Below are positions 287-12,945 of a stretch of DNA of 12,945 bases, piece by piece. The notes beneath the pieces were generated by a model. That model did no database searches. It was not told where the DNA came from and saw only the letters and a list, made by a program, of their open reading frames with translations. Positions within the stretch are counted from its first letter, which is position 1, and each line of letters opens with the position of its first letter. The DNA comes from Candidatus Vampirococcus lugosii (GTDB lineage: Bacteria; Patescibacteriota; Gracilibacteria; Absconditabacterales; Absconditicoccaceae). A program made the position numbers and the translations under genes. The stretch is taken from the NCBI RefSeq assembly GCF_018420025.1, contig NZ_JAEDAM010000035.1, forward strand, positions 1 through 12,945, written 5' to 3'.

Positions 287-1035
287 TCCAGAATACAAAT
301 AAAAAAGAACTTGAAAAAAATTAGAGAATATAGTGATAAATTATCTAAAATGAAAGAAACTAAAGATATTAAAGTTATATCTTTAGATGGTAAAGTTATA
401 AAATGAAGTTTTGATAATTTTAAAGATCAAAAAGCAATTCAAATATTTAGTGCTTTACTGAATTGAGAAATAATATTAGCTCATGAGGAAATAGATGAGA
501 AAACAAATGAAATTCCAATAGCTCAAAAATTTTTTGAAGAATTGTGATTAAAGTGAATAATTATTACTTTAGATGCTCTTCATTGTCAAAAAAAAACTTT
601 TAAAAAAATAATTGATTCCTGAAATGATGCAGTAATTCAATTAAAATGAAATCAAAAAAAATTAATGAAGAAATAGAGAAGAAACAAGAAATATTAAATT
701 TATATAAATATAAAACATTTATACTTTGACTATCTAAAGAATAGGAAAAATGTATAATAAATGTTATTGTTGTATATAGAAAAACAAAAGAAAAAAATAT
801 AAAAACAAAAAAATATGATTTTAAAACAGAAAAATCTTTTTATTTATCAACAAAATAGCTTACTGCAAAGGAATATTTAAAAATAATAAGATGACATTGG
901 GGAATTGAAAATAGAAATCATTATGTAAAAGATACATCTTTTTATGAAGATTCTTCTAGAATAAAAAAAAGTGCTGAAATAATATGATTACAAAATATTC
1001 ACTTTTTCTTTAAATGAACAGCCCTGATTTTATAA
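287..1035 (+). pseudogene. ISAs1-family (H-repeat-associated type) DDE transposase remnant: frameshifted, internal stops, internal deletion, N-terminal domain missing
   Basis: With TGA=Gly, frame 2 (350-673) reads MKETKDIKVISLDGKVIKGSFDNFKDQKAIQIFSALLNGEIILAHEEIDEKTNEIPIAQKFFEELGLKGIIITLDALHCQKKTFKKIIDSGNDAVIQLKGNQKKLMKK, then TAG at 674-676. This follows the ISAs1 core pattern IDGKtlR.S...DEKSNEI.aip.LL..L.lKGkiiT.DAmgCQk...GgDY..avKGNQ. Frame 1 (832-1032) reads KSFYLSTK*LTAKEYLKIIRGHWGIENRNHYVKDTSFYEDSSRIKKSAEIIGLQNI, with TAG at 856-858 and TAA at 1033-1035. This matches the C-terminal R.HW.IEN...ED motif. The interval 677-831 has stops in all frames and is shorter than the corresponding part of intact family members. 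Confidence 0.8.
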
Positions 1036-1138
1036 CACTAGAACTATTATCAAAAATGTTTTATCTAAACTCTCTATATCAAATTTAGTTATATCATGAC
1101 TATAATTTTATATTTGTCTATGCAAAACTCCTAAATAT

Positions 1139-1993
1139 TTAATATTTGTAAAAATGTGGAATAAGTAAAATTTTACTATCTAATAAATTATTTTTCATTT
1201 TAAATACAAAATTATTTACTTTTTCAGAAAATAATAAGTAGTTACTATAATCATAATATATTTCTGAATAAATAAATTTAACAATAATATCGTATTTATC
1301 AAAGTCATGATTATTTTTATTTTTTGAATTTGGATAAATAATTACTCCTATATTATTTATACTTCATATATATTCATTAAAATTTTCATTTTTTTTATAT
1401 TCTCATCAACAATTTTTTGAAAATATTTCAATAAAATTATCAATTTTTCAATCATAATTTATTCAAACATATATAGCTTCACATTGATATCAACTATATT
1501 TTAATCAATTTACTAATATATCAAAATTTTTAATTGAAATTTTTTCTGAATATCAAAATAAATCATCATAATATTGTTCCAAATATAATATTTTGGGTTC
1601 TAATAATAAATCTTTTTGCATCCATCAATAATCAAAACATATTAAATCATGTCAATTATTTGATGCAAAAACAATTAATCTTTTAGGAAAACAATATGTA
1701 AATTTGTTCATAGCTTCTATAATTTCATCTTCATACATATATTCAAAAACTACATCATAAAAAGATTGAACATATTCAATTTTATCAAATCCTGAAAAAA
1801 ACATTAGTTTGGGTTGATTATTTTGATCAAAATAAGTAGTAGGCAAAATATATCATCAATTACAAATTTTCATTAATTCTTTATATAAACTAGGTAATTT
1901 AAATCAAATTTCTTTTTCTTTATATTCTATATCTTCACAAGTGGCAGGAATATTTTTATTATTCCATCTCCAAAAAGAGTTTTTATTAATCAT
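1139..1993 (-). CDS. SMI1/KNR4 (SUKH-1) family immunity-like protein with an uncharacterised ~140-aa C-terminal extension (284 aa)
   Basis: I checked every minus-frame triplet from ATG (1993) to TAA (1139-1141); it is open under table 25 with many in-frame TGA. The track's 64-aa ORF 1652-1846 is an internal piece of it. N-terminal half: MINKNSFWRWNNKNIPATCEDIEYKEKEIGFKLPSLYKELMKICNGGYILP...LIVFASNNGHDLICFDYGWMQKDLLLEPKILYLEQ. This follows the SMI1_KNR4 pattern (ie..E..lg.kLP.dYkefl...NGG ... fa.dggGd.icfDy....ep.V..w.he). I do not recognise the C-terminal half (YSEKISIKNFDILVNGLKYSGYQCEAIYVGINYDGK...HFYKY). Confidence 0.7.
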
Positions 1994-2142
1994 ATTTAAA
2001 ATTATTTAATATTTAAAATTATTATTCAAAATAATTGACAAATAAACATTTATCTAAAAACTTTAAAAAAAACTAAAGTGTTCCATTTTCAAGACTAATT
2101 TATACTTTTTTTAAAGTAGTGACATTTAATATAATGTGGAAT

Positions 2143-2436
2143 CTAATCTTTATCAAAATCTTCTTCCCATTCTATTAGAACTTTTTCTAGAAAAGGTACA
2201 AAATTGCTATCTGCTAATATATTAATCTTTTCCAGTTTTTTAAAAACATCTTGTATTTCATTATGTGGAATAAATAATTCAAGAAAATTATTGGATTTTA
2301 CAAACTTCTGTTCCAAAATAGACCCATATTTAGGTAAACAATTTTCATTATAAAGGTAGCGAATTACAGATGAAAAGTGCCAAGCATCACTGTTATTTCC
2401 AAATTTTTTTATTAAATATTAAAATAATTTTTTCAT
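2143..2436 (-). pseudogene. Small hypothetical ORF interrupted by an in-frame TAA at codon 6 (possible decayed accessory or immunity-type gene)
   Basis: Minus strand reads ATG(2436) MKKLF, then TAA (2419-2421), then 91 open codons to TAG (2143-2145): YLIKKFGNNSDAWHFSSVIRYLYNENCLPKYGSILEQKFVKSNNFLELFIPHNEIQDVFKKLEKINILADSNFVPFLEKVLIEWEEDFDKD. There is no in-frame ATG or GTG after the stop, and the only TTG would give 57 aa. It contains no TGA codons. I recognise no family. Confidence 0.3.
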
Positions 2437-2673
2437 ATTATTGTAGGCATCTTTATAAAAGTATATAAGATTTTTATAAAAAAATGATTTAATTTGACTT
2501 TAAAAAAACTATTTTTTTCTTTTTTTTAATACTTTTTATAAAACCTTTTTATATTTTTTTCTATAATTTTACTGAAGGCCTGTAATAAAATTTTTACTAT
2601 TTTTAAGTAAAAATAAATATTTTTTATATTCTAAAATAGAATACTTGAATTTAAAAAATTTTTTATTTATATT

Positions 2674-2747
2674 CAGGGAGGCTAGGATTTGAACCTAGAG
2701 CACCAGCTTTGGAGAATAGTATGTTAAAACCAGTTAGACACCACCTT
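2674..2747 (-). tRNA. tRNA-Trp(CCA)-like element; imperfect cloverleaf, possibly a pseudo-tRNA or a recombination junction
   Basis: Reverse complement folds as AAGGTGG T GTCT AACTGGTTTTA ACAT A CTATT CTCCAAA GCTGG TGCT CTAGG TTCAAAT CCTAG CCTCCCT G. The T-arm is perfect (CTAGG/CCTAG, loop TTCAAAT). The anticodon loop is CU-CCA-AA. A1-U72 plus G73 is the bacterial tRNA-Trp identity pattern, and A14, G18G19 and A21 are in place. Against this: the acceptor stem pairs only 5/7, the D-stem has one mismatch plus one G-U with only one spacer nucleotide before it, and the anticodon stem has one mismatch plus two G-U. No CCA is encoded. Confidence 0.5.
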
Positions 2748-2953
2748 ACTTTATTTATAATAAATATAAATGTCTTTATATTATAAATATTTTTTTTAAG
2801 ATTTCAAATTTTTTTGGCTCTATTTTTTTGAGACAATACTTTTCTTTTAAACTGAAGGTTTATAAAGATATTAGAAGTCTCTTTATATAGTTATGTTTTA
2901 TGTTATATCAATATGCCATTCTTTTAAAAAGTTTGGCTTTAGTGTTTTTTCAT

Positions 2954-3361
2954 TTAGTAAAGGCATTTGTAATTCATATTTCAAAAAAGTTCTTGATTTA
3001 GTTCATATTCTAATTTTCAATAAATATTATTATCAATTTCAATTTCTACAATTTTGTAATTAAAATATTTTTCACATTTATTTTTATTTATTTTTTTGCT
3101 TATTTTATCTTGCAACACATTAACTGTATAATTTCTTTTAAATTTTTTAACTTCTTCCAATTTTTCTTGTGTTGATTTTACTAATAATCTTCTATTTTCT
3201 TTATCTTCATATTGTTTAGCGGGATTAAAACATAAAACATATTTTTTATCTTGTATTTCAAATTCTGATAATGTATGTTTATCAAATAAAGATTGTTGTA
3301 TTTTTTTATTATTTTCTGCTTTTTTCTTTAATTCTTTATGATTTAATCTAGAATAAAAAAA
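2954..3361 (-). pseudogene. IS4-superfamily (IS1634-like) DDE transposase internal fragment, no start codon
   Basis: Minus-frame triplets are open from just after TAG (3362-3364) to TAA (2954-2956), 135 aa: FFYSRLNHKELKKKAENNKKIQQSLFDKHTLSEFEIQDKKYVLCFNPAKQYEDKENRRLLVKSTQEKLEEVKKFKRNYTVNVLQDKISKKINKNKCEKYFNYKIVEIEIDNNIYGKLEYELNQELFGNMNYKCLY. It follows the conserved mid-region layout of IS1634-type transposases (r.vvc.NP.la..d...R..ll..te.eL.ki......r.......kigkvl.k.kv.KyF...i.d..f.y..n.e.i..e..ldG.yvl.T). The only in-frame ATG is 7 codons before the stop, and the flanks are non-coding. Confidence 0.55.
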
Positions 3362-3441
3362 CTATTTAAGACTTAAATAAACTTGATTTATTTAAGTTTT
3401 TTTTTATTATCATCGTTAATTTATATATAAAAATATAAAAT

Positions 3442-4956
3442 ATGAAAAAAGATAAATTAGCACTAATAATACTTGATTGAGTATGAATAAATGAAAAAAA
3501 ACCTGAACAAAATGCATTAATTCAAGCTAAAACACCGAATTTAGATAAATTGTGGGCATGAGAATACTCAAAAATTGAAGCTAGTTGAAAAAATGTATGA
3601 GTATCTGATGGTCAAATGTGAAATTCTGAAATATGACATATGACTATATGAGCTTGAAGAATTATAAAACAAATACCAACAAAAGTAAAAGATTTGTTGC
3701 AAACTTGAAAATTCAAAGATTTAAATGTTTACAAAGATTGATTAAAACATATACAAAAAAACAATAGCAATATACATATAATTCAATTATTTGGACCTTG
3801 ATGAGTTCATGCAAGTTATGAACATTTGTTATGATTTATAGATTTAATTCCATGAGATATATCTGTTTATTTACATCTTTTGTGAGATTGAAGAGATTTG
3901 GTGCCTAGATCTATGTTTTGATATATGAAAGATTTTTTGGAAATATTAGAAAACTATCCTAATATAAAAATATCTACAATTTGAGGAAGGTATTATGGGA
4001 TGGACAGAGATAATAATTGGGAAAGAATACAAAAATTTTATAAACAAATGATTTGAGATGATAATATAACTAATTTATCTATTTTGGATTATATAAAAAA
4101 ATCTTATGATAACGAAATTTTTGATGAATTTATAGAACCTACAAGTTTTACTTGAACAGAAAAAATTAAAGATTGAGATCTTGTATGTTTTTTAAATTTT
4201 AGATCTGATAGAGCAAAACAATTAACAAAAGTTTTTGTTGAGGAAAATTTCAATGAATTTGAAAGAAAAAATTTAAAAAATATAGAATTTATTTCTATGA
4301 CAAAATATTATTGAGAATATAAATGAAAATATTTTATAGAAGATGAAAATCTTGATAATATATTATGAGAAATACTTGAAAAAAATAATTTATCTCAATT
4401 ACATTTAGCTGAAACAGAAAAATTTGCTCATGTTACAAAATTTTTTAATTGATGAAAGGAAGTGAAATTTAAAAACGAAAAAGATATATTAGTAAAATCA
4501 CCAAAAGTAAAAAGTTATGATTTATGTCCTGAAATGTCAGCAGAATTAATATATGATGAGTTTGTCAAAAATATTAATAATTTTGACTTTTTTGTAATTA
4601 ATTTTGCAAATTGAGATATGGTTTGACATACTTGAGATATGCAAGCAACTATAAAAGCTATTGAAAAACTAGATTTCATATTATGAAATATTATTGATAT
4701 ATCTAATCAAAATTCTATAAAATTAATAATTACAGCAGATCATTGAAATTGTGAAGAAATGTGAACTGAAGAAAATAAAAAAACTTCTCATACAACAAAT
4801 CCAGTTCCTTTATGGTATATATCAAATTGAAAAACTCAAAAAATTAAAGAAAAATGATGACTAAAAGATATTGCTCCTACAATATTAGATATTTTGCAAA
4901 TTGAAATAGTATCTGAAATGGATTGAATATCTTTATTAAGTTGAGATGTTGAATAA
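3442..4956 (+). CDS. gpmI: 2,3-bisphosphoglycerate-independent phosphoglycerate mutase (504 aa)
   Basis: Frame 1 translated codon by codon with TGA=Gly, with no TAA/TAG until 4954-4956. Family motifs are present: [157 protein letters not shown]. I counted about 38 in-frame TGA codons, many at invariant glycines. Confidence 0.95.
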
Positions 4957-5004: not shown

Positions 5005-5226
5005 TTAGTTTTGTGATGGCGAGTATTATTGTATTTTCTATTGAGATGCGGAGTAATAAGAATATTGATGAATATGCGACATAATAAAGAAACATTCATT
5101 TCAAGAAAGAATAGAAAAAAGTCTTTAAAAAAGTTTGTAAATCGATATAATTGTGTCAAACTTCATAAATGAATTGATAATAAAACACCATATGAAATTA
5201 TAGATGAGTTTTATCACTGAAAATAA
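5005..5226 (+). pseudogene. C-terminal remnant of an integrase-core (rve-type, IS3/IS481/IS30-like) transposase
   Basis: Frame 1 is open from after TAG (5002-5004) to TAA (5224-5226). The tail reads ...MRHNKETFISRKNRKKSLKKFVNRYNCVKLHKGIDNKTPYEIIDEFYHGK. This resembles the conserved end of rve transposases (f.s.eel...l..wv.yYN..R.H.slg..TP.e....). No catalytic core lies upstream because gpmI ends at 4956. The first in-frame ATG at 5068 would give only 52 aa. Confidence 0.4.
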
Positions 5227-5259
5227 AAAGTTGTAAACAATACTACCATTTCTTACAAA

Positions 5260-5757
5260 TTACCAATTTATATTTTCAATAGCTCATGACCAATTTGTAT
5301 TTTCTTCATCAATACCAGATAAAGTAAAATTAGATTGATAATGCCATTTATCACCGTCTTCATGAAGAATTTGTCAAGCTATTATATACTTTTTTCAGCT
5401 ATAAGCTATATGATAAATATCATCATCTCAAGGATTTACTGTATTTAATCTTTCTATTTGCAAAATATCTGATAATTTATTATCTCAACTTGAATTTTTT
5501 TCCATAAAAGATAAACTAAATCAAGTATAATATGTTCAACCAGTTCATTCTATTCCTCAAGTAAGATTTCAATTGATAAGATAAACATCAATTCAATCTG
5601 AAATTACTGATAAATCTGCTTTTACTCTAGCTTCTTTACTTTTTCATACAAACTGAGTTAATGCAATTCAAGATATTACTGATAATACTGCGATAATAGC
5701 TATTACCACTATCAACTCTACCATAGTAAATCATTTGTCTTTTAAATTAATTTTCAT
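5260..5757 (-). CDS. Type IV pilin / pseudopilin with prepilin-type N-terminal cleavage-methylation signal (165 aa)
   Basis: Full reverse complement translated under table 25: MKINLKDKG|FTMVELIVVIAIIAVLSVISGIALTQFVGKSKEARVKADLSVISDGIDVYLINGNLTGGIEGTGGTYYTGFSLSFMEKNSSGDNKLSDILQIERLNTVNPGDDDIYHIAYSGKKYIIAGQILHEDGDKWHYQSNFTLSGIDEENTNWSGAIENINW, with TAA at 5260-5262. It has the canonical class III signal: a short basic leader, Gly at -1, Phe+1 and Glu+5, then a hydrophobic helix. The -1 Gly is a TGA codon (plus-strand tca at 5731-5733). I counted 14 TGA codons. Confidence 0.85.
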
Positions 5758-5787
5758 TATTTTTTTTAAAAATTAAATTACATTTAA

Positions 5788-5816
5788 AGTATAAATAAAC
5801 AAATATCAAAAATCAA
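5788..5816 (-). promoter_or_regulatory. Candidate sigma70-type promoter of the downstream pilin gene (TTGATT - 17 nt - TATACT)
   Basis: The minus strand reads TTGATTtttgatatttgtttattTATACT, with -35 at plus 5811-5816 and -10 at plus 5788-5793, about 31 nt upstream of ATG 5757. The -35 is embedded in a 15-nt block, TTGATTTTTGATATT, that also occurs upstream of the other pilin gene. AT-rich background makes chance hexamer matches common. Confidence 0.4.
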
Positions 5817-5844
5817 CTTTATTTTAATAAAAATATTTTTCTAT

Positions 5845-5874
5845 AACAAAAAAACTCTCATTTAATGAGAGTTT
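5845..5874 (-). terminator. Rho-independent terminator after the upstream pilin gene
   Basis: Inverted repeat aaactctcat (5852-5861) / atgagagttt (5865-5874) with a 3-nt loop. On the minus strand the hairpin runs into a 7-T tract (AAACTCTCAT-TAA-ATGAGAGTTTTTTTG). It lies 26 nt downstream of the 5900-5902 stop. No T-run follows it on the plus strand. Confidence 0.65.
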
Positions 5875-5899
5875 CTTAAAAAGATTATTTATATTAATA

Positions 5900-6385
5900 T
5901 TACCAATCTATACCATTAACAACATTAGACCAATCATCTGCTGTCAAGTCTTCTCAAGATAAAGTGAAGTTATCATATTCAAGATACCATTCTCTGTCAC
6001 CATTATCATCTGGATCTAATTTTCAACCTATAACATATTTTTTAAGATCAGAAGATATATGATATGATTCACTACTATCAGGATGTACTGGCACAGTAGG
6101 AAAAATATCTTGTAATCAAGTATTATTATCCAAAAAACCTGTATTAAAAACTGTTCCACCAGTTCAATTTGTACCAGTAAGACCACTAACATTATCAGCT
6201 TGAGCTAAGTATGTATCAATTCATCTAGAAATTGTTCATATATCTGACTTAACTCTAGAATCTCTAGCTTGTCACACAAACTGAGTAAGTGCAAGACCTG
6301 CCACTACTGCTAATACTGCGATAATAGCTATTACTACTATCAATTCTACCATAGTAAATCACTTCTTATTCAAATTAATTCTCAT
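5900..6385 (-). CDS. Type IV pilin / pseudopilin, paralog of 5260-5757 (161 aa)
   Basis: Full reverse complement translated under table 25: MRINLNKKG|FTMVELIVVIAIIAVLAVVAGLALTQFVGQARDSRVKSDIGTISRGIDTYLAQADNVSGLTGTNGTGGTVFNTGFLDNNTGLQDIFPTVPVHPDSSESYHISSDLKKYVIGGKLDPDDNGDREWYLEYDNFTLSGEDLTADDWSNVVNGIDW, with TAA at 5900-5902. It has the same prepilin signal, and the -1 Gly is again TGA (plus-strand tca at 6359-6361). Confidence 0.85.
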
Positions 6386-6422: not shown

Positions 6423-6450
6423 ATTATACATATATAATATCAAAAATCAA
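6423..6450 (-). promoter_or_regulatory. Candidate sigma70-type promoter of the upstream pilin gene (TTGATT - 16 nt - TATAAT)
   Basis: The minus strand reads TTGATTtttgatattatatatgTATAAT, with -35 at plus 6445-6450 and -10 at plus 6423-6428, about 38 nt upstream of ATG 6385. It contains the same 15-nt TTGATTTTTGATATT block found upstream of the other pilin. Confidence 0.4.
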
Positions 6451-6749: not shown

Positions 6750-7712
6750 ATGCAAATTGTTGAAATTAAAGAAAATGAAAAATGACAAAGATTTGATAGA
6801 TTTTTGAGAAAATATTTAAAATATACTGATATAGCTCTCAAAAGTATATTTAAAGCTATAAGAAAGTGAGATATAAAAGTTAATTGAAGTAAATCTAAAG
6901 AAAGTTATATACTTAATATGTGAGACGAAATAGTTTTTAACTCATTTTTTTCAAGTCAAATAAAAGAAAGTCAAAAAGATAAAAATCATAAAATCAAAAA
7001 TATTAAAAAATCAAATATAGAAAAATTAATTTTATTTGAAGATGAATATTGGTTGGCAATAGATAAACCAAGTTGAATAGTAATTCATCCTTGAGACAAA
7101 AATTATAATACTATTACTTTAGTTGATTTATTACAAAATTATTTAAAATCAGATATTTGAACTTTTAAACCAATGTTTTGATATAGATTAGATAAAGATA
7201 CGAGTTGAATCATAATAGCAGGCAAAAAATATGAATCATTAAAATTATTAAATTTATTGATAAAAAATAGAAATACTAAAAAAAAATATATTGCTGTTGT
7301 GTTGTGAAAAATTAATAAAGAAGAAATTATTGATAATAATTTGGAAAAAGTATATAGCAAAAAACTCGGTAAAAATATAGTTATCTGTTCGTCAAATTGA
7401 CAAAGTGCAAAAACAATTGTAAAACCTATTAAACACAAATTTATAGAATGAATTTGATATATAACATTATTGGATATAGAAATAAAAACTGGTAGAATGC
7501 ATCAAATAAGAGTTCATCTCAAAAAAATAAAACATCCAGTTATTTGAGATTTAATTTATGGAAATAGTGAAAAAAATAAATTATTTTTAAATAAATTTTG
7601 AATAAATAGACAATTACTTCATAGTAGTGAATATTATTTTTATGATAGTATACAAAAAAAAAATATTAATATACACTCCCCTATTCCTCAAATAATAAAA
7701 AATATTTTTTAA
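6750..7712 (+). CDS. RluA-family (RluC/RluD-like) ribosomal large-subunit pseudouridine synthase with N-terminal S4-like domain (320 aa)
   Basis: Frame 3 translated line by line with TGA=Gly and open to TAA at 7710-7712. Motifs: GQRFDRFLRKYL...IFKAIRKGDIKVNG (S4-like), WLAIDKPSGIVIHPG, FGYRLDKDTSGIIIAGK (catalytic Asp motif HRLDkdTSG), IEIKTGRMHQIRVHL, VIGDLIYG, RQLLHSSEYYF. Confidence 0.9.
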
Positions 7713-7729
7713 TATAATATAATATTAAT

Positions 7730-8608
7730 ATGAAAGATAATATTTTGTTTGATTCTTACAAAGATATTTTGAATGATACAAGTTTAACAAGATTAGCTAC
7801 ACTTACAACAATTATTTATTCTATCATATTTGTAATATATGTAGTTTATCAAACATATTCTACAATTTCTGAAACAACAGACCAAAGTAAAACTATTGAT
7901 ATTGCTATTGAATATATTAGTTTTTTTATAAAAAATATAGAATTTGCAGGTTTTATTTTTATTTGAGCCATTATTTTAGCTATATGATATTTTTTGTTGC
8001 CACCAATAGCAGATTGAGCATTAATTAGTTATGTAAAAAATAAAAAACATGGTTGAAAAAAAGCATTATCAAAATGAATACTTAACTTTTTTCCAATGTT
8101 TGAATATAATGCAATGACAAGTGCAGTAAATTTTTTGGTATTTTTCATAGCAATAAGTAGAGCATATAGTATGTGAATTTTGAATAATATATTTATACAA
8201 ATTTTAATATGAATTTGGTGATTAGTTTTACTTTTTGCATCTATATTTTTTCATTATTCAAAATTTTTTATAATTCTCAAATGATTATGACCAATAGATG
8301 CAATGAAAGAAAGTATTTTTCTAACTTTTGAAAACTTTTTTTTGACAATAAAATTTGTATTTATAAGTTATTTACTTTATATTAGATTTATATTAAATAT
8401 ATTATTTGTAATATTTATACCTTTATTTTTGATTCGACTTAATGTTAAATTATGATTTTTTGATTCAAATATTACTAAATTTATGATTTATACATCATTT
8501 TGATTATTAATTATACTTACTGCATATATAAATTGAATTATAGAAGCATTTTTCATATCGTACTGGTACAAAGTTTTTGAAAAAACACAAGAAAACACAG
8601 AAGATTAA
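7730..8608 (+). CDS. Hypothetical polytopic integral membrane protein (292 aa), family not recognised
   Basis: The track ORF 7730-7966 continues through TGA codons in frame 2 to TAA at 8606-8608, checked line by line. The sequence has repeated long hydrophobic stretches: TTIIYSIIFVIYVVY, FAGFIFIGAIILAIGYFLL, AVNFLVFFIAI, ILIGIWGLVLLFASIFF, FVFISYLLYIRFILNILFVIFIPLFLI, MIYTSFGLLIILTAYINGIIEAFFI. It starts 17 nt after the pseudouridine synthase stop, suggesting co-transcription. Confidence 0.75.
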
Positions 8609-8717: not shown

Positions 8718-11009
8718 TTGGCAAAAAAAAAAACTAGTAAAAAATCAAAAAAAATTGTTATAAATAAATATAAAATAGCATTAATTTTATTAGCTATTTG
8801 TGTACTATTTTTCTTTACTGTTTTTATGGCATCAGATGGAACACCACTTTATCGAGTAATTGAATTTCCAACACATTTAATAATTTGAAAATATTGAAGT
8901 TTTCTATTTTTTTCTTTTACTACAATAATGGCTTTTTATATATTATATGATGAATCAATATTAAAGAAAAAAATATTTAAAAAACTTTTATTATTATTTA
9001 TTATATCTTGTGCTATAATTAGTTTTCCGATATTAGAAAGTAGTGGATCTTGATCTTTGGATCCTTATAATTTAGGTTGATGGACATGATATATTGCATT
9101 AATGATTATAAGTTTTCTTTTGTGACATCAAAAAGAACCTACTCAATATTTTACTTTGCTTATTTTTTTATGAGTTTTTATTCGATTATTATTTACTCTT
9201 AAAATTAAGTTTTCTGCACCACAAATTCAATTTGATATATGAGATTGAAGAAATACTAAAAAAAATGAAATTAAATGAAAAATTAAAGAAAAAAAGTCTA
9301 ATTTTTTGTCAAAGAAAGAAAATATATCAAAAGCATCTGATATTGTAAATGATATACCAAAAAAAGAAAATAAAGCAAAATTAATTTTTAAATCATTTTT
9401 TGAAAAAAAATCAAAAGATAATAATGAAAATAATGATATCAATAACGAAAATGATAATAATATTATAGAAAATAAAAAAGAAAATATTATAAATAAAAAT
9501 TTAAAACAAAATAATAATATACAAGAAACAAAACAAAATAATACACAAGAAGTAAAACAACAAAAATTATCTTTTCCTGAAGATAAACCTAGTTTTGATA
9601 TAAATATTTTGGATGATGAACAAGATCAATCTCAATATGAACTTGATGATAATTATTTGAGTGAAAAAGCAAATTCAATTATTAATAAATTGGATGAATT
9701 TATGATACCAGTTTCTTTTGAATGATATAATATATGACCTACAGTAATACAAATAAAAATTAAACCAGAAGCTTGAATAAAAATATCAAGAATAGAAAAC
9801 TTAAAAAAAGATTTAGCACTTTGATTAAAAACTAAATCTTTAAGAATTTTGGCTCCTATTCCTGGAACAGAATTTATTTGAATAGAAATACCAAATCCAA
9901 AACCTCAAATAGTTGCTCTTAGTCAAATACTTTGATCAAAAGAACTTGGAAATAATATGTCAAATCATTTAACTAATCTTTCATTATGAAAATGAATAGA
10001 TTGAAATATTGTTATTAAACCACTTGAAAAAATGCCACATCTTTTAGTTGCATGAGCTACTGGTAGTGGTAAATCTGTATGAGTTAATGATTTTATATTA
10101 TCATTATTATTTCAAAATAGTCCTAGTGAACTTAAATTTATAATGGTAGATCCAAAACAAGTAGAATTATGAATGTATGAATGAATACCTTATTTACTCT
10201 CCCCTATTATTACAGAACCTGAAAAGGCAGTAAAAATATTAAAACGAGCTGTTGAATTTATGAATTCTAGATATCAAAAACTTAAAAAAACTAAAGTAAG
10301 AAATATTGATCAATACAATCAAAAAGTACCAAAAGAAGAAAAAATGTATCGTTTAGTTATAATTATTGATGAATTAGCTGATCTTATGATGAGTAGTAAT
10401 AAAAAAGATACTGAAAATTATATAGCAAGAATAGCACAAATGGCTAGAGCTGTATGAATTCATCTAATAGTTGCTACACAAAGACCATCTGTTAATGTTA
10501 TTACTTGAGTTATTAAAGCTAATATTCCTACTAGAATAGCATTTGGTGTAGTTTCTGTAGTTGATAGTAGAACTATATTGGATAGTAAAGGTGCAGAAGA
10601 TTTGGTATGAAAATGAGATATGTTATATATGGATACTACTACCAAATTTCCTATGAGAATTCAAGCTCCATTTGTAGATACTGATGAAACTGAAAATGTA
10701 GTTTCAAGTATTAAAGAAAAATATATGCAATGACTTAAAGAAGAAGATATATATCATCCAGAAATTATAAATATATTGGAATCTAAACCTGAATATGCTT
10801 GATGATGAAATTGATCTGATTGATGAGATGATGAATTGATCGAACAAGCTATACAAATAATTACAGAAACAAGAAAAGCAAGTGCAACTATGTTACAAAG
10901 AAAATTAGGTATATGATTTGCAAGAGCTGCTAGACTTATGGATATTTTGGAAGAAAGATGAATAGTATGACCTGTAGATTGAGCTAAACCTAGAGAAATT
11001 TATGTATAA
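8718..11009 (+). CDS. ftsK: DNA translocase FtsK/SpoIIIE (about 763 aa; start codon uncertain)
   Basis: Frame 3 is open from 8706 to TAA at 11007-11009 under table 25 and joins the track fragments 9306-9725 and 10260-10457. Order of parts: N-terminal TM segments ([60 protein letters not shown]), an N/K/E-rich linker, then the motor domain. Motor motifs: [19 protein letters not shown] (Walker A), [25 protein letters not shown] (Walker B), [51 protein letters not shown]. The gamma domain is [30 protein letters not shown]. The proposed start is TTG at 8718 ([12 protein letters not shown]...). The first in-frame ATG (~8826) would remove the first TM helix. Confidence 0.9.
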
Positions 11010-11212: not shown

Positions 11213-12685
11213 ATGAGTTTTGTTATGTCTGAAAAAAATAATGCGATACTTCGTTTTGATAATGTGTCATTTGATTACAATGATTGAGCTAATATAATTT
11301 TGAATGAAGCATCTTTTTCTGTTCGTGAAAATACGAAAATAACTATAATGTGACAAAATTGAGCTGGTAAATCTACCATATTTAAACTAATTACATGAGA
11401 ACTTAAACCTAAATCATGAAAAATAAATATAGTAAATTGAAATTCTGTTGCTATTGCTAGACAAGTAATTCCAAAAGAACAGTTTTTGTATACAGTAAGA
11501 GAATTTTTTGAACAAGTATTTGATGAAAAAGATTATCAATTAGATATGAAAATAAACAATATTCTCAAAGAAGTAAATCTAAAAACAAATTTAGATAAAA
11601 AAATAAAAGATTTTTCATGATGACAACAAGCAAGATTGCTTTTGGCTCAAGCTTTAATACAAGAACCAGATATATTACTTTTGGATGAACCTACAAATAA
11701 TTTAGATAAAGATTGAATATGAGATTTAATTTGATTTTTGCTTACATATTTAAAAACTGTTATAGTTATAAGTCATGATGCTGATTTTTTGAATATGTTT
11801 ACAGATTGAGTTTTATATTTAAATAAAAATGATAATACTGTAGAACAATATTGGTGAGATTATTATACAGTTTTGGAAGAAATAAAAAACCAAATAGAAA
11901 AAGAAAAATCTCAAAATGCAAGAGCAGAGAAAAAAATGAAAGATGCAAAAGAAAAAATTAATTATTTTGCAAATAAATGATGAAAAATGAGAAAAATAGC
12001 TAAAAAAATGAAAGAAGAAATAGAAGAAGTTGAAGATGAAAAAGTAATAGTGAGAAAAGATGATAAAACAATTCCTAATTTTGAAATTCCTTTTGATAAT
12101 TATAACGGTCCTATTGTTCAAATCAAAAATATAACTATAGTAAATAAAGAATGAGAATTACAAACTAATAAAGTGAAAATTCAGTTAAAGAAAAAAGAAA
12201 AACTTTTAATAAAATGACCAAACTGAATATGAAAATCTACTTTATTGAAAAGAATGGTAAATTGAAAAGATAATGATGCTAAAATTACAAGCGATGTAAA
12301 AATTTGATATTATAGTCAAGATTTTGATGCATTAGATATGAGTATGTCAGTTTGGGATTCTTTACATGAAATGAGTAATGAAGTTACTAATCAAGAAGTT
12401 TATGATACAGCTGGTAGATTTATGTTGGCTAAACTTATAAAGAGTAAAGTAGGAGCTTTATCAGAATGACAAAAATGACTTTTATGTTATGCAAGATTTA
12501 TAATACAAAGACCAGATTTATTAATTATGGATGAACCAAGTAATCATATTAATTTCCGTCATTTACCAGTAATAGCTGATGCATTAAATAATTATAAATG
12601 AGCTATGATAATGATAAGTCATGATGAAGAATTCTTGAGTAATATAAAAGATGTAGATGAATTAGATTTATCTTCGTTTTTGTAA
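11213..12685 (+). CDS. ABC-F family ATPase (tandem ABC domains, no TM domain; 490 aa from ATG 11213, alternative ATG 11225)
   Basis: Frame 2 translated line by line with TGA=Gly and open to TAA at 12683-12685. NBD1 motifs: MGQNGAGKST (Walker A), [12 protein letters not shown] (signature), [12 protein letters not shown] (Walker B), VISHD. A K/E-rich inter-domain linker follows ([44 protein letters not shown]). NBD2 motifs: [40 protein letters not shown]. Confidence 0.9.
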
Positions 12686-12720
12686 TTATACTAAAAACAT
12701 TTAATAATATTAGTATAATT
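12684..12720. other. 10-bp AT-rich inverted repeat bridging two convergent stop codons (possible weak bidirectional terminator)
   Basis: aattatacta (12684-12693) and tagtataatt (12711-12720) are exact reverse complements separated by 17 nt. They overlap the ABC-F TAA (12683-12685) and the IS630-like stop (12719-12721). The stem has a single G:C pair and there is no clear T-tract. Confidence 0.25.
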
Positions 12721-12945
12721 ATCTAATTATTTGAATTTTATTATTCAACAAACTAGATAATTTTTCCTTAAAAGTTAAATTAAATTCTCAGCAAATAGCC
12801 TTAATTATTTCTATAAAATCAAAAAAATTAGGAGTATATGTATTTTTTAATACTTTTTTTAAAAATTTCCAAACTCTTTCTATTAAATTTAAATTAGGTG
12901 AATATGGCGGTAAATAACACAGTTTTATTCACAGTTTTTCAGCTA
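12719..12945 (-). CDS. IS630/Tc1-mariner-family (DDE_3) transposase, C-terminal part only; 5' portion lies beyond the right window edge
   Basis: The minus frame is open from the window edge to TAA (12719-12721), checked triplet by triplet: AEKLGIKLCYLPPYSPNLNLIERVWKFLKKVLKNTYTPNFFDFIEIIKAICGEFNLTFKEKLSSLLNNKIQIIR. LPPYSPxLNxIERvW..lK is the hallmark IS630 motif around the last catalytic residue. It contains TGA-encoded Gly. Intact versus truncated cannot be judged from this window. Confidence 0.75.

Follow-up and report, generated by a model that had tools for sequence, protein, structure and literature searches.

The window analysed here is one complete contig of 12,945 bp. Between its genes for iPGM and a pseudouridine synthase lie two adjacent genes on the minus strand, here called A and B, which encode small proteins with prepilin-like N-termini (Table 1). 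The start of gene B was placed at 6385 and not at an in-frame ATG at 6424, because the resulting leader matches that of the paralog and because the 6424 ATG is overlapped by a TATAAT sequence. Both ORFs require translation table 25 (TGA = Gly); with table 11 they are reduced to fragments, there being 14 in-frame TGA codons in gene A and 8 in gene B. The glycine preceding the cleavage site (Gly-1), which is invariant in these prepilins, is encoded by TGA in both window pilins (5731-5733 in A, 6359-6361 in B) and in both close homologues, a neat internal confirmation that TGA is read as glycine. TGA also accounts for 147 of the 174 glycine codons in seven non-pilin genes of the window. The adjacent iPGM shares 52-57% identity with its best matches, and these carry the names Absconditicoccaceae, Gracilibacteria and SR1. 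Over 1.8 kb the contig is matched at 100% identity in sequencing run SRR13241709. With TGA at conserved glycines and relatives in the code-25 group (Gracilibacteria and Absconditabacteria-SR1), the host of the pilin pair is a code-25 CPR-type bacterium of the Gracilibacteria/Absconditabacteria group. Elsewhere the window contains decayed DNA, namely fragments of transposases, a pseudo-tRNA and 1.45 kb free of ORFs, and Rfam and ARAGORN searches of the window returned no RNA genes at threshold.

Table 1. Position and description of the features at the pilin locus, in window coordinates (a slash marks the predicted cleavage site in the leaders)
Feature	Position	Strand	Description
Pilin gene B (upstream copy)	5900..6385	-	161-aa prepilin, leader MRINLNKKG/FTMVE, table-25 ORF
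Pilin gene A (downstream copy)	5260..5757	-	165-aa prepilin, leader MKINLKDKG/FTMVE, table-25 ORF
Promoter-like site, gene B	6423..6450	-	TTGATT (6450-6445), 16 nt, TATAAT (6428-6423); consensus and paralog conservation
Promoter-like site, gene A	5788..5816	-	TTGATT (5816-5811), 17 nt, TATACT (5793-5788)
Intrinsic-terminator-like hairpin after gene B	5843..5877	-	13-bp stem AAGAAACUCUCAU/AUGAGAGUUUUUU, then U-rich tail
Weak hairpin and U-rich tract after gene A, possible terminator	5220..5258	-	hairpin 5231-5258

Both prepilins have a basic leader of nine residues that ends in Gly-1, followed by Phe+1 and Glu+5 (MKINLKDKG/FTMVELIVVIAIIAVL in A and MRINLNKKG/FTMVELIVVIAIIAVL in B), with mature lengths of 156 aa (A) and 152 aa (B). 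In the profile search that the first-pass annotation had suggested, the table-25 translations of A and B are recognized by the N_methyl profile PF07963 (30.9 and 33.2 bits, cut-off 21.2), and likewise by TIGR02532 (31.5 and 32.8 bits, cut-off 16.3). Leader, Gly-1, Phe+1, Glu+5, a hydrophobic stretch of about 20 residues and scores above the curated cut-offs together characterize type IV prepilins with class III signal peptides, and A and B are, judged by sequence, genuine type IV prepilin genes. When a profile of the close family was compared with PDB sequences, the best match was PilE1 (8pfb, E-value: 1.6e-9), covering residues 10-64 and thus the helix only. The N-terminal ~60 residues of the family also match solved major pilins and pseudopilins such as geopilin and PilA, and the helix alone is matched by thousands of database pilins.

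The two proteins are 47% identical, with 31/40 identical positions at the N-terminus and 48/128 in the remainder (~37% for the heads), in keeping with the earlier description of tandem, strongly diverged paralogs. The near-identity reported for the leader and helix extends to the DNA, where the two genes match exactly over 17 nt (positions 25-41 of the gene) and 24 nt (positions 52-75); these blocks may result from gene conversion, or from purifying selection combined with AT-biased codon use (dS 0.45 for codons 1-37 and 0.86 for the head, from few sites). All of the conserved head islands that had been listed were recovered in the pairwise alignment of A and B. Neither protein contains cysteine, as had been stated, although this feature is unremarkable, being normal in monoderm pilins such as Streptococcus sanguinis PilE1 and PilE2 (PMC10628169).

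A terminator between the genes and a promoter-like motif ahead of each had also been proposed, and both are present. The -35 elements of the two promoter-like sites fall within an exact 15-mer (TTGATTTTTGATATT) that occurs upstream of A at 5802-5816 and of B at 6436-6450, at distances of -59 and -65 from the respective ATGs. A shared word of at least this length was obtained in only 10 of 1000 shuffles, although promoter-like sites as such occur no more often in the AT-rich sequence than chance predicts (14 vs 18.6 expected). The hairpin between the genes (5849-5877) has a dG of -13.1 to -14.0 kcal/mol and a z-score of -3.3 to -4.9 relative to shuffled sequences; it emerged from a repeat search and folding, while a dedicated terminator scan reported none in the window. 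The hairpin that follows gene A is indistinguishable from shuffles (dG -4.8 kcal/mol, z -0.9). From these signals, A and B appear most likely to be transcribed independently. As each copy has a promoter-like box of its own and a strong terminator lies between them, the arrangement would be typical of major pilins, unlike the operons of minor pilins.

No family of its own was assigned to the pilin head in Pfam or NCBIfam. The head core (P-x-[DH]-P...Y-H-I...K-K-Y-x-I-x-G) can be aligned with a pilin family that is wider and mostly recoded, and with the helix removed this relationship is retained (hhalign probability 95%, E-value: 3.7e-8). The profile of the wider family in turn matches GspG, including the helix-less domain 2kep (positions 44-135, E-value: 5.4e-4). 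T2SSG was detected in 9 of 51 wider-family members, a weak signal, and for the nearer relatives of the window pilins the T2SSG score is only 16-18 bits (cut-off 21). Gene B is present in the database as P0001, in table-4 translation. The AF2 model, for which the table-4 translation was used so that 8 Gly positions were read as Trp (pLDDT 80.4, pTM 0.70), predicts a helix at 6-61, an alpha-beta loop and antiparallel strands (E108-114, 116-122, 133-137 and 140-144), which would be the topology expected of a pilin. Foldseek comparison of both models, each from the Trp-for-Gly translation, with the PDB gave no significant match (best E-values: 0.27 and 0.35), and a head-only profile of the close family had no match among PDB sequences.

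Among 1.84 billion representatives, only four belong to the close subfamily. Of the foreign homologues the closest, P0031, is encoded directly upstream of a PilT/PilU ATPase gene (TIGR01420, 406.7 bits vs a cut-off of 319), which lends indirect support to a link between the window pair and a retractile type IV pilus. A second tandem pair of the subfamily is found in another organism, at locus L002, where one copy has an in-frame TAA. The iPGM loci of relatives (L085-L087) contain no pilins and have beta-lactamase-like, enolase or other neighbours. A GTDB scan with the family alignment returned, among the matches listed, only PVC, CPR and other generic pilins and no family members; its patterns were those of the generic helix ([KQ]GFT[ML]VELI and VVIAIIA[VI]L) with glycine as GGN, so that TGA-coded sites were missed. 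In JGI metagenomes a family-specific degenerate pattern of 108 nt had 0 matches, and a broader pattern (TGA-Gly plus FTxVELIVVIAIIA) had two, both long modular pilins (475 and at least 733 aa) that are uninformative for the A/B pair. The Cys-free subfamily is confined to recoded lineages; while pilin genes are ordinary for these organisms, this subfamily is very rare.

Starting from what was observed directly, namely how the two genes are built, their class III signal motif and paralogy, the transcription signals around them and the pilT gene next to the homologue, we infer with a probability of roughly 0.7 that A and B are independently transcribed, paralogous type IV pilins, major-pilin-class subunits of a retractile, PilT-powered pilus in a monoderm-type code-25 CPR bacterium. 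The 9-aa leader and mature size of ~152-156 aa fit the T4a/major-pilin class. The hydrophobic N-terminal helix would insert each prepilin into the membrane, a prepilin peptidase would cut after Gly-1 to leave an N-terminal Phe, and Glu+5 together with the helix would drive polymerisation and form the filament core. The small head would pack on the outside and combine a beta-hairpin core that is conserved (P-x-[DH]-P...YHI...KKYxIxG) with an alpha-beta loop and a C-terminal segment that both vary. As the helices are near-identical and the heads differ, A and B could enter the same filament and give it a mosaic surface, comparable to that of S. sanguinis PilE1/PilE2, or either one alone could build a filament. 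Such a pilus might serve in host attachment or DNA uptake. In the literature, type IV pili are reported to be widespread in CPR bacteria, to be encoded by Vampirococcus and to be expressed by Gracilibacteria (PMC6744442, PMC11452946, PMC8080830).

The first-pass annotation drew attention to a pilin pair standing alone. No pil, gsp or com assembly genes were identified in the 12.9-kb window with Pfam and NCBIfam, nor was an A24 prepilin peptidase, so the description is accurate for this stretch. It is, however, an ordinary arrangement and not a remarkable one, and because the window is a single complete 12.9-kb contig, the absence of assembly genes from it has little bearing on the genome as a whole. 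Major pilin genes often lie away from those for assembly, an example being Neisseria pilE. A 292-aa multi-pass membrane protein (7730-8608) was considered as a prepilin peptidase and dropped, as it has no Pfam or NCBIfam match.

Among the closest known parallels for the pair is S. sanguinis PilE1/PilE2, likewise encoded by two paralogous genes of the major-pilin type in an organism of monoderm type, with the same canonical short leader, Phe+1 and Glu+5. In S. sanguinis the two genes are part of the pil locus, unlike the window pair. PilE1 and PilE2 show extensive identity to each other, whereas A and B are far more divergent, and no homology of the window heads to PilE1 is detectable. PilE1 and PilE2 co-polymerise stochastically, and their C-terminal tail is stabilised only on polymerisation, with no disulfide or metal staple of the kind found in diderms (PMC10628169). 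The pair also resembles CPR pilin repertoires (such as fam000005 of Meheust et al. 2019 and the clusters of several pilins in UBA5633 Paceibacteria), in which one genome encodes several small prepilins that share the ELIVVIAIIAVL helix with A and B. CPR pilins are associated with PilB, PilC, PilD, PilM and PilT, and roles in host attachment and DNA uptake have been proposed for them (PMC6744442, PMC9763046). Most of the CPR pilins retrieved have Cys-rich heads (e.g. P0004-P0006 and P0013) and CPR genomes are enriched in a disulfide oxidoreductase, while the window subfamily has no cysteine and, in contrast to these repertoires, comprises four close members from recoded lineages only.

A first alternative, which we consider unlikely, is that the pair is a variation locus, in which alternative major pilins, used singly or recombined, alter the pilus surface and with it host range or phage or receptor evasion. 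Divergence is indeed concentrated in surface-exposed parts of the pilin, with nucleotide identities of 9/30 (codons 61-70) and 11/30 (codons 151-160) vs 28/30 in the helix core, and the recurrence of tandem copies at L002, one interrupted by TAA, suggests birth-and-death turnover. Gene B also deviates in its glycine codons (9 GGN and 8 TGA, vs 27 and 147 in other genes; Fisher p 9e-4) and has a higher GC content, which would be compatible with import or recombination. Against this, pairwise dN/dS is below 1 everywhere (0.65 overall, 0.73 in the head, 0.29-0.44 in the helix region) and gives no signal of positive selection, with dS near saturation. Neither an invertible segment nor a convincing switch element was detected in the window, the inverted repeats being low-complexity AT-rich matches, and the databases hold no strain-level variants, the sole other copy being 100% identical. 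In Neisseria pilE/pilS, too, pilin sequences lie apart from assembly genes and combine a conserved N-terminus with a variable C-terminal part. The pilS copies, however, lack a promoter and the 5' part of the coding sequence and act as gene-conversion donors; A and B are full length, each with a leader, start codon and promoter-like box, no promoterless silent cassettes were found, and no recombination-initiating-like element was identified in the window, which sets the pair apart from a locus of this type. Co-assembly of two major pilins in one filament is an equally good explanation of the pair, and the host-range or antigenic-variation role put forward in the first-pass annotation is best treated as a hypothesis.

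For host attachment and DNA uptake in CPR bacteria, the leading candidate organelle is the type IV pilus, and host or prey specificity would be encoded in the pilin heads. It is a speculative proposal, and a doubtful one, that the Cys-free recoded-CPR subfamily evolves by tandem duplication and decay, and that two heads on one helix build a mosaic or switchable surface that sets host or prey attachment. If this were true, the locus would be a host-range determinant in a lineage without cultivated members, to which even the nearest relatives sequenced show only ~55% identity in a housekeeping enzyme. Repertoires of several pilins, and pilin genes that are unlinked, have already been described in CPR and monoderm bacteria. 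The locus contributes a Cys-free pilin subfamily that is rare, stems from a deep and unsampled code-25 lineage and has recurrent tandem copies, and otherwise leaves the existing picture unchanged.

It is also improbable that A and B, instead of being the main filament subunits, serve as minor pilins or as pseudopilins in a system that does not retract, for instance a Com-type pseudopilus for DNA uptake or a T2SS-like apparatus. Sub-threshold N-terminal similarity to GspG, GspH and ComGC would fit such a role, as would a head core that resembles the GspG/T2SSG motif: in GspG/PulG (PF08334; PDB 5wda and 2kep), as in the window family, alpha1 is followed by a small head with a P-x-D-P...Y-x-Y...K-Y-x-[IL] beta-hairpin core. 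CPR bacteria are, moreover, thought to rely on DNA uptake (PMC8080830, PMC6744442). The equivalog-model matches, however, fall far below their cut-offs and cover the helix only (TIGR01710 gspG: 27.2 and 29.0 bits vs 88.85; ComGC NF040999: 19.8 and 18.2 bits vs 75), and neither window protein matches T2SSG (PF08334) at E ≤ 1. Membership of GspG/PulG is thus not indicated, the link to GspG being transitive, via the wider family; in addition, the pair has no T2SS context and the family carries a C-terminal extension of its own (NFTLSG-x-D...W). Assignment to ComGC is likewise disfavoured, as there is no comG neighbour in the window and the mature proteins (~155 aa) are larger than ComGC (~90-100 aa; the NCBIfam profile has 84 positions). 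Instead of a comG- or gsp-like operon there are separate promoter-like sites and a terminator between the genes, and the homologue P0031 adjoins PilT, the retraction ATPase. Com and T2SS systems are not known to have PilT. The outer membrane required for a T2SS is thought to be absent in these organisms (PMC6744442).

Finally, one copy might be a duplicate that is silent or decaying and at present has no function, as the TAA-interrupted copy at L002 and the decayed DNA elsewhere in the window could suggest, but this is very improbable given that 161 and 165 codons are intact despite 53% amino-acid divergence, that Gly-1, Phe+1, Glu+5, the head core and the promoter-like box are kept in both genes, and that the low helix-region dN/dS points to continued constraint on both.

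For this pair, the best-supported interpretation is that each gene is its own transcription unit and encodes a type IV pilin of the major-pilin class, in a CPR bacterium of monoderm type. The descriptive elements of the first-pass annotation were all correct on checking: it had reported two minus-strand pilins of 165 aa (gene A, the downstream copy) and 161 aa (gene B, the upstream copy), and table-25 ORFs of these lengths were found, neither encoding any Cys, with the 17-nt and 24-nt nucleotide-identical blocks at gene positions 25-41 and 52-75. The leaders up to the cleavage point, MKINLKDKG (A) and MRINLNKKG (B), are followed in both proteins by the identical sequence FTMVELIVVIAIIAVL. Both proteins pass the N-methylation domain models PF07963 (30.9 bits for A and 33.2 bits for B, cut-off 21.2) and TIGR02532 (31.5 and 32.8 bits, cut-off 16.3). 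Global identity is 47%, distributed as 31 of the first 40 columns and 48 of the remaining 128. For gene B the start at 6385 is preferred to an upstream in-frame ATG at 6424, because the resulting leader matches that of the paralog and the TATAAT box overlaps the codon at 6424.

These translations depend on the genetic code. The window has a G+C content of approximately 20% and contains only short ORFs under the standard code, with long genes appearing under table 25 (TGA = Gly); in its seven non-pilin genes, TGA accounts for 147 of the 174 Gly codons. Gly-1 of the prepilin cleavage motif is itself encoded by TGA in both window pilins (5731-5733 and 6359-6361) and in P0003 and P0031, the close homologues from other organisms (contigs L002 and L003, respectively), while Trp would be expected there under table 4. 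TGA-coded Gly-1 thus serves as an internal functional check of code 25, in which TGA is read as Gly and neither as Trp nor as stop. Public database entries for these pilins (P0001 and P0002 from the window, P0003 and P0031) were translated with table 4 and show Trp at each of these positions, which lowers their Pfam scores: P0001, the entry for gene B, scores 16.7 bits against N_methyl versus 33.2 bits in the correct translation. Because the best relatives of the window iPGM are only 52-57% identical and are named Candidatus Absconditicoccaceae, Gracilibacteria, Absconditabacteria and SR1, the organism is taken to be a CPR bacterium using code 25, with no close relative among those sequenced.

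The proposed terminator between the genes is present as a 13-bp hairpin followed by a U-tract (dG -13 to -14 kcal/mol, z -3.3 to -4.9 versus shuffles), which was not picked up by an automated terminator scan. Gene A is followed by a weak hairpin (dG -4.8, z -0.9). Each gene does have a promoter-like motif ahead of it (TTGATT-16-TATAAT for B and TTGATT-17-TATACT for A). Matches of this kind are not above chance in window DNA (14 found, 18.6 expected). The two -35 elements fall within a 15-mer that the genes share exactly, located at -59 and -65 relative to their start codons, and a shared word of this length was reached in only 10 of 1000 shuffles.

Features of the window and tandem pilin copies of contig L002
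Contig	Feature	Position	Strand	Remarks
Window	DDE transposase fragment	350-676	+	
Window	Transposase fragment	859-1032		
Window	SUKH/SMI1-KNR4 protein	1139-1993	-	284 aa; PF09346, 59.6 bits
Window	Stretch without intact table-25 ORF	1994-3441		1.45 kb; stop-to-stop fragments only (e.g. 2146-2418 -, 2957-3361 -)
Window	Degenerate tRNA-like element	2674-2747	-	Rfam tRNA 18.5 bits, gathering score 29; ARAGORN negative
Window	iPGM	3442-4956	+	
Window	Pilin gene A	5260-5757	-	table-25 ORF, 165 aa
Window	Hairpin and U-tract	5849-5877		between the pilin genes
Window	Pilin gene B	5900-6385	-	table-25 ORF, 161 aa
Window	RluA-type pseudouridine synthase	6750-7712	+	
Window	Multi-pass membrane protein	7730-8608	+	292 aa; no Pfam or NCBIfam match
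Window	FtsK	8826-11009	+	
Window	ABC-F ATPase	11213-12685	+	
Window	DDE_3 transposase fragment	12719-12943	-	contig end
L002	Tandem pilin copies	1-105 and 454-973		

Matches of the window pilins to curated families and solved structures are confined to the first ~60 residues. NCBIfam equivalogs (Myxococcus PilA, GspG, GspH, ComGC and others) score far below their cut-offs and match the helix only, and PDB profile matches, such as those to Streptococcus sanguinis PilE1 (8pfb, 1.6e-9), geopilin and PilA, end at approximately residue 64. When 5.8 billion proteins were searched by a word index, P0003 and P0031 were the only clear relatives beyond the window's own P0001 and P0002. Similarly, exhaustive HMMER searching of 1.84 billion representatives placed these four alone below 1e-30, the next being P0143 at 1.7e-24. 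The head, the part after the N-terminal helix, is a rare sequence family.

Approximately 100 more proteins align across profile positions ~5-130. Many are Trp-rich (at least 4% Trp in 48 of 133), i.e. from recoded genomes read by table 4, and many of those in recoded genomes are modular pilins of 400-800 aa (P0144, P0149, P0153, P0156-P0158, P0174, P0190-P0193 and others; loci L088 and L089), in which an N-terminal pilin module (~5-130) is fused to large unannotated C-terminal regions. This layout recalls the bimodular PilB of S. sanguinis, and these proteins are candidate adhesins of code-25 CPR bacteria. The 51 short members of the wider family (alignment A6) share the core L..[IV]P.[DH]P...Y.[YI]...KY.[IV].[AG].LE, which reads LQDIFPTVPVHPDSSESYHISSDLKKYVIGGKLDPDD in the window protein. 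When helix-less heads of the window family and the wider family were compared, they matched with 95% probability (E 3.7e-8, 34 columns). The A6 profile matches both full-length GspG (5wda, positions 9-116, E 7.5e-13) and the helix-less GspG domain 2kep (positions 44-135, E 5.4e-4). Based on these profile comparisons, the head is best described as that of a small pilin, strongly diverged but with a beta-hairpin core resembling that of GspG. Membership in T2SSG (PF08334) was rejected: this domain was found in 9 of the 51 A6 members, reached only 16-18 bits in nearer relatives (cut-off 21) and was not found in the window proteins by Pfam search.

The sequence folded was P0001, which as a table-4 translation carries Trp at 8 Gly positions. 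A model from 22 sequences gave a pLDDT of 73.7, and one from the 51-sequence alignment gave a pLDDT of 80.4 and a pTM of 0.70. The latter model contains a helix (6-61), short alpha-beta-loop helices, four antiparallel strands (108-114, 116-122, 133-137 and 140-144) and a short C-terminal helix, a predicted topology that is the one expected of a pilin. Foldseek searches of the PDB with both models returned nothing significant (best E 0.27 and 0.35), and a head-only profile of the close family had no match among PDB sequences. A pilin fold of the head is thus plausible but unconfirmed.

As claimed, no pilus assembly genes occur in the window, which is a complete contig of only 12.9 kb. On its own contig (30% G+C, code 25), P0031 lies 130 nt upstream of a gene for a 377-aa ATPase identified as PilT/PilU by TIGR01420 (406.7 versus 319 bits). 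This bona fide PilT/PilU would link P0031 and its subfamily with type IV pili of the retractile kind, rather than with a Com or T2SS apparatus. In L003 (ENA ERZ27266011 k141_658427, 309-3142), P0031 and pilT are followed by a divergently oriented gene for a 316-aa Thioredoxin_4 (DsbA-like) protein whose linker is strongly acidic; such oxidoreductases are reported to be enriched in CPR and have been proposed to fold pilins, yet P0031 has no Cys. L002 (ENA ERZ27266014 k141_974429), the P0003 contig, opens within a further pilin ORF, of which only the C-terminal part is present; the initial 59 nt recur exactly close to the end of the downstream pilin gene, and the sequences diverge thereafter. 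The downstream copy carries an in-frame TAA (VAVND*DYTEF) where homologues read through, which makes it a pseudogene unless the stop is an error of assembly or sequencing. Tandem copies thus recur in the subfamily, as apparently does decay. The iPGM loci of relatives lack pilins, and the location of the pair is thus not conserved. The sole other database copy of the pair is in Logan run SRR13241709 (1,812 bp, 100% identical).

Between A and B, dN/dS (Nei-Gojobori) was 0.65 overall, 0.29-0.44 in the leader and helix and 0.73 in the head, with dS (0.45-0.86) near saturation. The two genes differ most at codons 61-70, just past the helix, and at codons 151-160, close to the C-terminus; the beta1-beta2 core is conserved. 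Such a distribution, with helix and core buried and loops exposed, is usual for pilins and is evidence neither for positive selection nor against diversification. Gene B is an outlier in Gly codons (9 GGN and 8 TGA, versus 27 and 147 in the seven non-pilin genes; Fisher p 9e-4), G+C content (31.7% versus 18-24% elsewhere) and GC3 (0.137 versus 0.065-0.106), which could reflect high expression, with avoidance of the reassigned codon, or import from a relative of ~30% G+C.

As type IV pilins, both prepilins would be processed between Gly and Phe (G/F) and polymerise through their nearly identical helix. A and B may be co-assembled or used alternatively. S. sanguinis PilE1 and PilE2 provide a model for co-assembly: they polymerise in a stochastic manner, and no disulfide or metal staple holds their C-terminal tail, which becomes stable only on polymerisation (PMC10628169). 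Earlier work on CPR has described type IV pili, multi-pilin repertoires and pilin clusters (PMC6744442, PMC9763046), and type IV pili specifically in Gracilibacteria and Absconditabacteria (PMC11452946, PMC8080830). Standing alone and lacking Cys, both stressed in the first-pass annotation, do not set the locus apart. The earlier interpretation is supported in part: the identification as pilins and the link to a pilus stood, but neither the special meaning given to the arrangement nor the role in host-range or antigenic variation did. No silent cassettes or switch element were found at the window pilin locus, and the variation hypothesis, though still viable, is unsupported. The locus is a rare subfamily of an already known kind of pilin.

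Elsewhere in the window, the ORF-free stretch suggests decayed genes and, together with the three transposase fragments, gives the contig a rearranged or mobile-element-scarred look. The tRNA-like element has a good T-arm, mismatched acceptor and anticodon stems and UCC (Gly) at the anticodon position, and is probably a tRNA pseudogene or integration scar. SUKH/SMI1 family members often confer immunity in polymorphic toxin systems. The one here has no toxin gene next to it, and its host being a putative episymbiont or predator, it may be an orphan immunity gene. The 292-aa membrane protein gene lies directly after the pseudouridine synthase gene and before ftsK. FtsK itself has a linker of ~130 residues between its membrane and alpha domains (~aa 140-270), extremely rich in Asn, Lys and Glu and of a low complexity typical of the AT-rich genome here.
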